Shown piece by piece: positions 30,734 to 32,206 of a DNA stretch of 64,000 bases. Under the pieces are notes generated by a model that ran no database searches, was not told the origin of the DNA, and saw only the letters and a list, made by a program, of their open reading frames with translations. The DNA lies in contig CAVCSV010000009.1 of NCBI GenBank assembly GCA_963604715.1, positions 1,927 through 65,926 on the forward strand, written 5' to 3'. Positions within the stretch are counted from its first letter, which is position 1. The number at the start of each line of letters is the position of its first letter. A program made the translations under genes and the position numbers. This DNA is from Limosilactobacillus gorillae. GTDB lineage: Bacteria > Pseudomonadota > Alphaproteobacteria > CAAGCB01 > CAG-977.

Positions 30734-30762
30734 AGCGGATGCGGCTCAGCGTCCGCTTTTTT
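30734..30762. promoter_or_regulatory. stem-loop (AGCGGA-N12-TCCGCT plus T6) overlapping the stop codon of the upstream small gene and preceding paralog A3
   Basis: Seen directly. The strong T-run is on the + (antisense) side and only a weak one on the coding side, so it may act as an attenuator or as an antisense terminator. Confidence 0.35.
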
Positions 30763-31375
30763 GTTTCAGGTTCAGCGCGGTAATCATGCCGCCGGGGTTG
30801 CCCAATCCCGAAGCGTACAACGCCTGCACTTCTTTTTTGTAAGAAGATTCGGGCGCCAACACTTTTTTCATTTTTTTCAAAGCGTACAAAGCGCGCTTGG
30901 CGTCGCCGTATTTTTCCACGTCGGACGCTTCCTTTTCGGAAGCTTTGGGCATCATCGCCGCATTGGCGCCCGTGCAAAGCGCACCCGCCGCCAATATCAC
31001 CGTCGGAGCCGCCATCGGTTCGATTCCCTGCGCCGCCATTACGCCGCCGACAACCGCCGCCGCGCCCAAAGCGACAGCGCGCGCGACTTCCGCGCCTTTG
31101 TGTCCGAACGCCGCCTGCATTTTGGTTTTCAAGGACGTATTTTTGGCTTCCTTGCCGTAAAATTCCTGCAGATTTTCGATTTCCTCGACGGCTTTGGCTT
31201 TGTCGCCGAAATTCATCGGATGGTCTTCCATATAGACTTCGGCGACTTCGTCGCGATACTGTTTGGGAACGCCGTCCACCTGTTTCATCAAGCCGTTCAG
31301 GTACATGCCGACTTTCAGCTTGGTCGCGGCATCCTGCATTCTTTTGTCGTTTTTAGCCACAATAATCAAAGACAT
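30746..31375 (-). CDS. hypothetical small protein with a central Gly/Ala-rich hydrophobic (glycine-zipper-like) segment, paralog 1
   Basis: 209 aa. Hydrophilic helical N- and C-termini flank AVALGAAAVVGGVMAAQG...ILAAGALCTGANAAMM. Shares the start MSL(I/N)I, LKTKMQ/LQTKMD and YALKKMKKVLAP/FVLKMMKKQLAAL with 31526-32206. Confidence 0.6.
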   Translation of the reverse strand: MSLIIVAKNDKRMQDAATKLKVGMYLNGLMKQVDGVPKQYRDEVAEVYMEDHPMNFGDKAKAVEEIENLQEFYGKEAKNTSLKTKMQAAFGHKGAEVARAVALGAAAVVGGVMAAQGIEPMAAPTVILAAGALCTGANAAMMPKASEKEASDVEKYGDAKRALYALKKMKKVLAPESSYKKEVQALYASGLGNPGGMITALNLKQKSGR

Positions 31376-31475
31376 AATTTTGCCCTTTCCTTGGTTTGTT
31401 TGACAAAAATTCTAACACGGTTTGTCCAGATGTACAAGCCCTTCTTTGTGCAAAACGGCACTTTGAATCGATTTT

Positions 31476-31490
31476 TTGACAAATTGTCAA
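31476..31490. promoter_or_regulatory. perfect 15-bp palindrome TTGACAAATTGTCAA (candidate operator, or -35 boxes on both strands) between the two small paralog genes
   Basis: Seen directly. A second TTGACAAA copy is at 31399-31406. Confidence 0.4.
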
Positions 31491-31525
31491 GAAACAAACG
31501 GACAACCCCGCACCCGCAAAAAAAA

Positions 31526-32206
31526 CTATCTGTTGTTTGCTTTCAGCTTCAGCGACGACAGAACCGCGGCGTTTGTTTTGGCGCTTTTCAGCGCGGCCAG
31601 CTGTTTTTTCATCATTTTCAGGACGAACAGGGACTGTTTGGCTTCGGTATAGCGGCTCAGTGATTCGAAACGCTGTTCGGCTTTTTCCTTGTTGTGGGAA
31701 TTCAATTTCGCCAAAGCCGAGCCTGTCCGCGCAACACCGACCAGACCGACGGCGCAAACGACCGATTTTGCAATCACTTCGGGTGAAGCGCCGCTTGTCG
31801 CCGCAATCAAGCCGCCGACGGCGCCCGCGGCTCCGTAGAGCAGGGTGTCTTTCAAAATAAGGGAAGTCGTTTCGCCGACCGCGTAATCCATTTTTGTCTG
31901 CAGGGGCGCTTTGCGGGTTTCCGCTTTGTAATATTTCTGCGCGCCGTCAATCAGCTGTTCCGCGGCATCAATATTTTGAACATGCAAAGGATGCTTTTGC
32001 ATATATTTCAGCGCTTCCTTGTGTTCGACTTTGCGGTTTGGTGTTTGGTCGAAAAATCGGCGGGCGCTGTCGATCCGGCGCATGGCTTTGACCGCGCCTT
32101 TTAAATAATCGCCGATTAAGCGGGCGGTGTTTTCGGAGTGTGCGGATTTGTGTTCAACGGCAATATTCAAAGACATGGCAACCAATCCTTTGCTGAAAAA
32201 CCGCAA
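31526..32206 (-). CDS. hypothetical small protein with a central Gly/Ala-rich hydrophobic segment, paralog 2
   Basis: 226 aa. YGAAGAVGGLIAATSGASPEVIAKSVVCAVGLVGVARTGSA, with the same N-terminal and C-terminal signatures as 30746-31375. Confidence 0.6.
   Translation of the reverse strand: MRFFSKGLVAMSLNIAVEHKSAHSENTARLIGDYLKGAVKAMRRIDSARRFFDQTPNRKVEHKEALKYMQKHPLHVQNIDAAEQLIDGAQKYYKAETRKAPLQTKMDYAVGETTSLILKDTLLYGAAGAVGGLIAATSGASPEVIAKSVVCAVGLVGVARTGSALAKLNSHNKEKAEQRFESLSRYTEAKQSLFVLKMMKKQLAALKSAKTNAAVLSSLKLKANNR

Follow-up and report, generated by a model that had tools for sequence, protein, structure and literature searches.

A C-terminal tail common to a clade-restricted family of helical hairpin proteins and to zinc peptidases of gut Alphaproteobacteria

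Introduction

The pore-forming domain of colicins and the Bcl-2-like proteins are helical units of about 200 residues, which bury an Ala/Gly-rich hydrophobic hairpin and insert into membranes post-translationally. Holins are usually shorter than 150 amino acids (aa) and consist essentially of one to four transmembrane segments and a charged C-terminus, and among peptidases, latency imposed by a C-terminal tail is known for the minigluzincins. The transmembrane effectors of type IV secretion systems (T4SS) have mostly two segments in an N-in/C-in topology, with a moderate hydrophobicity that evades the signal recognition particle, and type IVA effectors have a C-terminal signal of positive charge, which VirD4 reads (PMC12981334; PMC6110835). 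Here, these systems are compared with two adjacent genes, called P1 and P2, and with the metallopeptidase genes that follow them, in a stretch of 64,000 nucleotides (nt) of contig CAVCSV010000009.1 (assembly GCA_963604715.1; Alphaproteobacteria, CAG-977), referred to below as the window. P1 and P2 belong to an undescribed, clade-restricted family of helical proteins (the P family), and a specific C-terminal tail is common to this family and to zinc peptidases only. As far as the searched resources show, the shared tail is unreported: a full-text literature search for DUF6782, the domain of most of these peptidases, returned no papers, and a literature search on RF32 secretion systems returned nothing useful. 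This group of gut Alphaproteobacteria is uncultured and has hardly been studied.

The P family and its peptidase neighbours

The products of P1 and P2 align by BLASTP with 29% identity over 202 columns (expectation value, E, 4e-17) and are therefore real paralogues, as had been proposed in a first-pass annotation made from the letters of the window. The shared features cited there are all found in the two proteins, namely an MSL start, the LKTKMQ/LQTKMD motif, a hydrophobic central segment and a YALKKMKK/FVLKMMKK helix. Of the two sizes given there, 209 aa for P1 stands and 226 aa for P2 does not: the mechanical open reading frame (ORF) of P2, 31526-32206, reaches a TTG at 32206, but the start is most likely the ATG at 32176, which would give a product of 216 aa beginning MSLNIA, since the NCBI record has the 216-aa form and the homologues are all about 216 aa long. 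The sequence AAGGA lies 11 nt 5' of this ATG. With ratios of non-synonymous to synonymous substitution rates against orthologues of 0.09-0.26 (P1) and 0.13-0.16 (P2), both genes are under purifying selection.

An exhaustive profile search of 1.84 billion representative proteins (E<=1e-3) placed the family in 81 clusters, nearly all of 190-250 aa, and all named matches are metagenome-assembled genomes of uncultured gut or rumen Alphaproteobacteria, including UBA2903, UBA6411, HGM167xx, Acetobacter sp. CAG:977 and Rhodospirillales RUG12246. No named protein is among 86 homologues of P1. In scans of P1, P2 and their long relatives with Pfam, NCBIfam, PHROGs and PADLOC no match rose above noise, and the strongest one (LeoBC, P2 only, E 2e-4, 18.6 bits) was taken as a coiled-coil artefact; a Pfam scan of 58 diverse members showed no recurrent family (75 families matched at E<=1), and a profile search of the PDB sequences found nothing for the P family and nothing for DUF6782. 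Phasins, which the first-pass annotation had named as an example of an unrelated family that might account for the pair, were looked for as PF05597 and PF09361: P1 and P2 have no match to them at E<=1, neither profile is one of the 25 families listed in the scan of the 58 members, and homology to other known families did not appear either.

Directly downstream, 28 nt after the P1 stop, begins the first of three genes (cluster A) whose products had been described as HExxH proteins and match DUF6782 (PF20573) with E from 1e-36 to 8e-44, so that the reported position of the pair immediately 5' of three such genes is borne out. The six DUF6782 proteins of the window score 117-150 bits against a gathering cut-off of 27, and have an HExxH motif; H110, E111, H114 and E144 are invariant. 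The cluster A zincins start with a long conserved basic N-region and a short Ala-rich h-region ending in AFA, which resembles a Sec-type signal peptide. The three copies of cluster B, found elsewhere in the window, have no N-terminal hydrophobic segment and no P gene alongside.

The shared C-terminal tail

P1 ends in ...ITALNLKQKSGR and P2 in ...AVLSSLKLKANNR, both following a pattern in which a hydrophobic cluster is succeeded by a K/Q/N-rich stretch and then by G-R-COOH; the terminal Arg is kept in at least 90% of 58 aligned P members. A position matrix was made from the last 14 residues and scored on all ORFs of the window and of 49 related loci. With this matrix, the median score is 18 bits for P and DUF6782 proteins, against a 99th percentile of 1.5 bits in other ORFs. 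Of the non-redundant P or DUF6782 proteins, 51/56 have a C-terminal Arg vs 39/415 of the other ORFs (Fisher ~1e-37), and 27/56 a C-terminal Gly-Arg vs 3/415; over the 20 C-terminal residues the net charge is +3.9 vs +1.0 (p 5e-16). Nine proteins of the window carry the tail: the two P proteins, the six DUF6782 proteins and one M3-family peptidase.

Outside the two families, the only high scorers in about 450 ORFs are this M3 peptidase (13.9-15 bits, the top of the non-family ORFs), together with its orthologue in L016 (L016:15797-16588), and a protein of 703-732 aa with an HEFQH motif, which stands among P genes in L013 (703 aa, L013:5012-7123) and L014. Four loci (L013, L014, L036 and L038) have an HExxH protein with this tail encoded amid their P genes, and every carrier that is not a P protein is a zinc peptidase. 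The tail persists in DUF6782 homologues down to 31-40% identity, and by hhalign the P family and DUF6782 are unrelated apart from it. Diverged tails (...SKKGAAR, ...KRCVLR or ...RQATY) are seen in expanded P arrays.

In P1-type proteins the conservation extends inwards, the last 27 residues (VQALYASGLGNPGGMITALNLKQKGGR) being almost invariant where the remainder drops to 40-50% identity. P2-type proteins have no such repeat unit and keep the extreme tail. In long distant members of 306-442 aa (P0098, P0116, P0126, P0141 and P0139) the unit S-Y-x-x-E-V-x-x-L-F-A-x-G-Y-G-N/Q-P-(S)G-G-M/L-V is repeated three to six times, with Glu/Pro/Lys/Ala-rich linkers between the units. In P0139 the repeats follow a different hydrophobic N-terminal part, and one protein of 338 aa with an unrelated hydrophobic N-terminus has two units.

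Because three unrelated peptidase types and the P proteins carry one and the same tail, a common trans-acting reader, which could serve export, targeting or docking, is a more economical explanation than separate functions in cis. The P proteins and the tail-bearing peptidases would thus form one marked set. We tentatively prefer to read the tail as a tag for targeting or export that all of them share, with the P proteins as those members of the set that insert into membranes. Under this proposal the tail would be read by one common targeting or export machine, the peptidases would be its enzymatic cargo, and the P proteins could be parts of a translocator or pore, or else effectors anchored in the membrane, in a mode akin to that of T4SS transmembrane effectors or of the paralogous parts of multi-part alpha-pore-forming toxins. 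Its more specific form, in which a lineage-specific sorting tag feeds an undescribed export or assembly pathway and the P proteins are the membrane-inserting or pore-forming part that delivers or anchors the peptidases, is more doubtful.

The same tail could instead act on the peptidases themselves, as a pseudo-substrate or product-like plug of the zincin active site, working in cis in the peptidases, where it would impose latency, and in trans from the P proteins, which would then be inhibitors or immunity proteins. A disordered segment with a fixed last residue and a free carboxylate would suit such a plug, as would the occurrence of several repeated C-terminal units in some P proteins and the fact that the other carriers are all zinc peptidases. 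We consider this distinctly unlikely, as one tail would need to fit three peptidase folds (DUF6782, M3 and the 703-aa protein), the P genes lie upstream of the peptidases in a ratio that is not 1:1 and also occur alone, and the conserved hydrophobic hairpin of the P proteins is left unexplained.

A further alternative takes the tail as a loading peptide that gathers peptidases and P proteins in one encapsulin-like shell. As in such cargo, a folded domain is joined through a flexible linker to a short peptide at the C-terminus, and the core of the tail, phi-small-small-L-K/N, loosely resembles encapsulin targeting peptides. Yet no shell gene (HK97-fold, PF04454) was seen within +/-6-8 kb in the annotated loci, and members with a hairpin or a signal peptide are implausible as lumenal cargo; we rate the idea as highly improbable.

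Predicted structure of the P proteins

The G/A-rich hydrophobic central segment noticed at first reading is present throughout the family, with 24% Ala, 12% Gly and 12% Val. It forms a hairpin of two segments, which in P1 have Kyte-Doolittle values of 1.86 and 1.37 and Hessa sums of +3.5 and +5.1 kcal/mol; over 58 members, the two 19-residue cores range from 1.3 to 2.3 on the Kyte-Doolittle scale, and their Hessa sums are all positive (+1 to +6 kcal/mol). Such positive sums mark marginal membrane segments rather than classical integral-membrane helices, that is, the type of segment that can stay soluble and then insert post-translationally. Charge counts on the flanks in the alignment gave no decisive topology for the hairpin.

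The AlphaFold2 model of P1, computed with a 58-sequence alignment, has a mean predicted local distance difference test score (pLDDT) of 79.4 and a predicted template modelling score of 0.65. Helices 3-33, 38-51, 59-78, the start of 82-115 and 147-173 are modelled with pLDDT >90, and we read them as one bundle; the hydrophobic part (~97-143) is modelled as two low-confidence helices, and the last 20 residues as coil, predicted to be disordered. The helix YALKKMKK/FVLKMMKK is the best conserved of the family, with Y156, K160 and L166 nearly invariant. In the model, an N-terminal helical bundle would be joined by this conserved amphipathic helix (Y..AK.AL.ALK.MKK), which appears to pack back onto it after the hairpin. 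Foldseek comparison of the P1 models with the PDB found nothing below E 0.5, with template modelling (TM) scores of <=0.25. MakA, AhlB, AhlC, SmhB, HblL1 and ClyA recur among the top non-significant matches, a hint only, the best match to the ClyA family having E 0.95 and a TM-score of 0.17 (E 0.99 with the first model).

The likeness to glycine-zipper, immunity or holin proteins suggested earlier did not hold, with zero matches to such families; the profile hidden Markov models of the glycine-zipper families PF13488, PF13441 and PF05433 do not match P proteins. A holin-like function can be imagined all the same, in which P oligomers in the inner membrane free the leaderless peptidases in the manner of type 10 secretion: the two-segment hydrophobic hairpin and the charged basic C-terminus would fit, and leaderless peptidases are encoded in the same genome. 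At 190-250 aa, and with a folded N-terminal domain of 95 residues (modelled confidently as a bundle in P1, 209 aa, and P2, 216 aa), the P proteins are larger than holins. They match no PHROG or Pfam holin family; in place of an adjacent endolysin, the neighbours are DUF6782 zincins, ybgC and tolQRAB-pal; no muramidase or spanin is found nearby in the annotated loci; and the peptidases bear the same tail as the supposed pore. A release pore of this kind is accordingly improbable.

Genomic context and copy number

The context was surveyed in 50 loci, with flanks annotated for part of the loci. The order is one to six P genes followed by one to three DUF6782 genes on the same strand, and P lies directly 5' of DUF6782 not only in the window but also in most of the related loci, with examples as low as about 46% identity, so that the co-occurrence of the two families across genomes, put forward as a check of the first-pass annotation, was indeed seen. 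Copy numbers vary among close relatives (P plus DUF6782: 2+3 in the window, 3+2 in L024 and 1+2 in L008), and P genes reach five to six tandem copies in L012, L013, L014, L036 and L038. P genes also stand alone, in at least seven contexts unrelated to one another, among them the ruvB/ybgC site without DUF6782 (L004), after ispDF (L016, L020 and L021), near hflKC (L022 and L023), near dnaJ (L026), after a ribosomal operon (L030) and beside a gene for an ankyrin-repeat protein (L028). The P-DUF6782 link is frequent and ordered, and not obligatory, because of these solitary genes, and for the same reason a strict toxin-immunity pairing fails. The comparison with toxin-immunity or chaperone-effector modules made at first reading was therefore abandoned as far as a strict pair with fixed 1:1 adjacency is concerned: the copy numbers of the two families are unequal, cluster B has no P gene, and the tail is common to both.

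Where flanks are annotated, the array stands upstream of ybgC-tolQRAB-pal, and in several loci directly 3' of ruvB. In the window the stop of the third zincin gene, A3, overlaps the start of ybgC (a 4HBT thioesterase) by 4 nt (27261-27264), and the zincin array thus appears translationally coupled to the ybgC-tolQRAB-pal operon.

This location underlies an explanation that needs no export machine, in which the P proteins act in the inner membrane as hairpin scaffolds for the DUF6782 zincins, or regulate them, in the style of HflK/C-FtsH and together with Tol-Pal; the targets would be envelope proteins, and the tail a docking peptide for a scaffold or for anionic lipid. It would account for the placement between ruvB and ybgC-tolQRAB-pal in most loci, for the A3/ybgC overlap and for the signal-peptide-like N-termini of the cluster A zincins, and the EP/KA-rich linkers of the long P members resemble the spacers of TolA or TonB. 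We rate it as unlikely, since the same tail is found on the leaderless cluster B and on the M3 peptidase, the strong variation in copy number (up to six P genes) would be atypical of a housekeeping module, solitary P genes lie far from tol-pal, and the P family is absent from other bacteria that have Tol-Pal.

At the other extreme, the P proteins might have no functional link to the peptidases and be an independent, lineage-specific membrane protein, with the adjacency inherited as synteny and the likeness of the tails due to composition. That all P-DUF6782 loci belong to one clade, mostly at one chromosomal site, and that solitary P genes are common would be expected from this. The enrichment of the tail (p ~1e-37), with peptidases as the sole other carriers, would not, nor would the tail-bearing HExxH protein among the P genes of four loci or a gene order kept despite the turnover in copy number, and the probability that we give to such independence is low.

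Two neighbours of single P genes were also recorded. In L028, about 600 bp upstream of a distant six-repeat P gene, a 754-aa protein that consists almost wholly of ankyrin-like repeats is encoded (L028:5118-7382), the two genes being separated by a RuvX gene on the other strand; this neighbour hints at contact with eukaryotic cells in that organism. The 692-aa gene that follows the P gene of CAG:977 looks, by eye, like a family-2 glycosyltransferase rather than a zincin.

Regulatory DNA around P1 and P2

Upstream of P1 lies a sigma-70-like promoter (Table 1), and in seven aligned P1 upstream regions the -35 box reads CTTG(T/A)A and the extended -10 box TG-n-TA...T. Around the -10 box, the inverted repeat GACAAA-N13-TTTGTC has arms that are invariant in 7/7 orthologous P1 promoters, with a variable spacer. 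It occurs just once in the window, where 0.09 copies would be expected. Its conservation and its position over the -10 box suggest control by a repressor, and P1 would be transcribed from this conserved promoter of its own.

The first-pass annotation had proposed a shared operator made of the perfect palindrome TTGACAAATTGTCAA between the two genes and of a second box, TTGACAAA. The palindrome is exactly where it had been placed, at 31476-31490, and the box is present too, at 31400-31407 instead of 31399. As an operator the palindrome was rejected: perfect 7+7 palindromes with a spacer of 0-3 nt number 24 in the window vs 34 +/- 6 in Markov simulations, the sequence is imperfect in the closest relatives, L024 and L025 (TTGACAATTTGTCGA), and only its half TTTGTC(A/G)AAAA recurs, in 5/7 orthologues. 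The TTGACAAA box fares better, as an arm of GACAAA-N13-TTTGTC, which is the better operator candidate of the two.

The stem-loop described over the P1 stop codon also exists, with arms at 30731-30742 and 30749-30760 that are 92% complementary. Among 13 folded orthologues it recurs in one (L014) and is absent from the other 12, and a role as a conserved regulator was rejected.

Upstream of P2, a gene for a 65-aa protein consisting of a LuxR/GerE-type helix-turn-helix (32310-32507, minus strand) is followed by a strong terminator with an 11-bp stem (32258-32282), and a divergent LysR gene occupies 32768-33667. These LuxR-type and LysR neighbours are found only in the closest relatives of the window (L024 and L025), whereas GACAAA-N13-TTTGTC is more widely conserved. 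The single tRNA gene of the window, at 35161-35244 on the minus strand, is the only Rfam match at the gathering threshold.

Table 1. Positions in the window of the P genes, of the tail-bearing peptidases and of the associated sequence elements.
Feature	Position	Strand	Description
P1 gene	30746-31375	-	209 aa; P family subtype with GLGNPGGM unit
P1 hydrophobic hairpin, residues 97-143	30947-31087	-	Ala/Gly/Val-rich, helical: VARAVALGAAAVVGGVMAA - QGIEP - MAAPTVILAAGALCTGANAAMM
P1 conserved C-terminal module, residues 176-209	30749-30850	-	ESSYKKEVQALYASGLGNPGGMITALNLKQKSGR; nearly invariant in P1-type homologues
P1 basic tail, last 14 residues	30749-30790	-	tail matrix
P2 gene	31526-32176	-	216 aa from the probable ATG start; P family subtype without GNPGG unit
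P2 equivalent hydrophobic hairpin, residues about 106-152	31721-31861	-	alignment, hydrophobicity
P2 basic tail, last 14 residues	31529-31570	-	NAAVLSSLKLKANNR type, terminal Arg; tail matrix
DUF6782 zincin A1, 377 aa	29584-30717	-	PF20573 E 7.8e-44; HEGRH and EADA motifs; tail ...FVVKNAARGR
DUF6782 zincin A2, 373 aa	28450-29571	-	PF20573 E 1.1e-36; tail ...MIAQQKAQQR
DUF6782 zincin A3, 392 aa	27261-28439	-	PF20573 E 2.2e-40; tail ...QKLKMGQGR
DUF6782 cluster B, three leaderless copies (330, 333, 284 aa)	52656-55506	+	same tail
M3-family peptidase, 626 aa	13100-14980	-	PF01432 E 1.6e-37; tail ...AALLKQSKTAGR
P1 promoter, sigma-70-like	31409-31436	-	TGTACA-16-TAGAAT with TG extension; -35/-10 positions kept in 7 orthologous upstream regions
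Inverted repeat GACAAA-N13-TTTGTC around P1 -10 box	31402-31426	.	candidate operator; contains TTGACAAA box
Perfect 7-1-7 palindrome	31476-31490	.	TTGACAAATTGTCAA; includes TTGACA hexamer; present, not above chance
Terminator-like hairpin directly 3' of P2 stop	31498-31517	-	stem stronger in L024/L025
Hairpin over P1 stop codon, then TTTTC	30731-30760	-	weak, lineage-specific attenuator candidate

Weighing the shared-tag reading

Several observations weigh against a shared tag for targeting or export. Neither the window nor the related loci yielded a secretion or targeting machine. The tail is also present on the cluster A zincins, which have a Sec-type N-terminal hydrophobic segment, so that its carriers are predicted on either face of the inner membrane, a distribution that one receptor in the cytoplasm would not easily explain. 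The signals of known T4SS are less sequence-specific than a tail with a near-invariant terminal Arg. The location at the tol-pal operon and the 4-nt overlap of A3 with ybgC point to a housekeeping role in the envelope, solitary P genes are found in housekeeping contexts, and the fold matches to pore-formers are non-significant (E >=0.5, TM-score <=0.25).

Should the tag nevertheless be real, a recognisable mark common to peptidases and hairpin proteins would let the exported or co-localised proteome be read from metagenomes, and would give a first functional handle on DUF6782, while the P proteins would stand as a new membrane-active family whose peptide units are repeated and highly conserved. 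Were the tag a secretion signal, it would indicate proteolysis aimed at the host or at competitors by a common inhabitant of the human gut.

Comparison with known systems

The T4SS transmembrane effectors are the first group with which the P proteins can be compared. The P hairpin likewise consists of two moderately hydrophobic segments in the 58 members, and the C-terminus is polar, basic and disordered, with the charge of +3.9 vs +1.0 given above. Like those effectors, the P proteins are lineage-specific, multi-copy and fast-evolving (PMC12981334), and soluble enzymes with the same type of tail are encoded near them. On the other side, neither the window nor the loci contain a VirB/VirD4 or Dot/Icm machine, the P proteins have a recognisable tail motif with a near-invariant terminal Arg where VirB/D4 substrates carry a loose charge signal, and their array lies in the tol-pal region and not in an effector island.

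With the ClyA-family multi-component toxins (AhlABC, SmhABC, MakABE, Hbl/Nhe) the P proteins have in common an all-helical bundle with a hydrophobic helical 'head' between bundle helices and the tandem arrangement of paralogous components; the Gram-negative examples have no signal peptides, and members of the family recur among the top fold matches. These matches are, however, non-significant (E 0.95-5, TM-score about 0.2), no Pfam match accompanies them, the P proteins are about 100 residues shorter, and ClyA proteins have no tail in common with peptidases. Membership of the colicins was rejected, sequence and fold matches being absent for the pore-forming colicin domain and for the Bcl-2-like proteins alike, and the hairpin of the P proteins is central and not C-terminal.

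DUF6782 (PF20573), a family of putative metallopeptidases, resembles the P family in being clade-restricted, in having the same tail and in being encoded on the same strand, as its partner family, but beyond the tail there is no homology between them. The HflK/C-FtsH complex is alike in that a non-catalytic protein embedded in the membrane is encoded next to the zinc protease that it partners, and differs in that the P proteins have no SPFH domain, the peptidases are not AAA+ proteins and the stoichiometry is variable. The mode of action that we rank first resembles known kinds, namely secreted membrane effectors or pore components; a tail that feeds a pathway not yet described would, if true, be categorically new.

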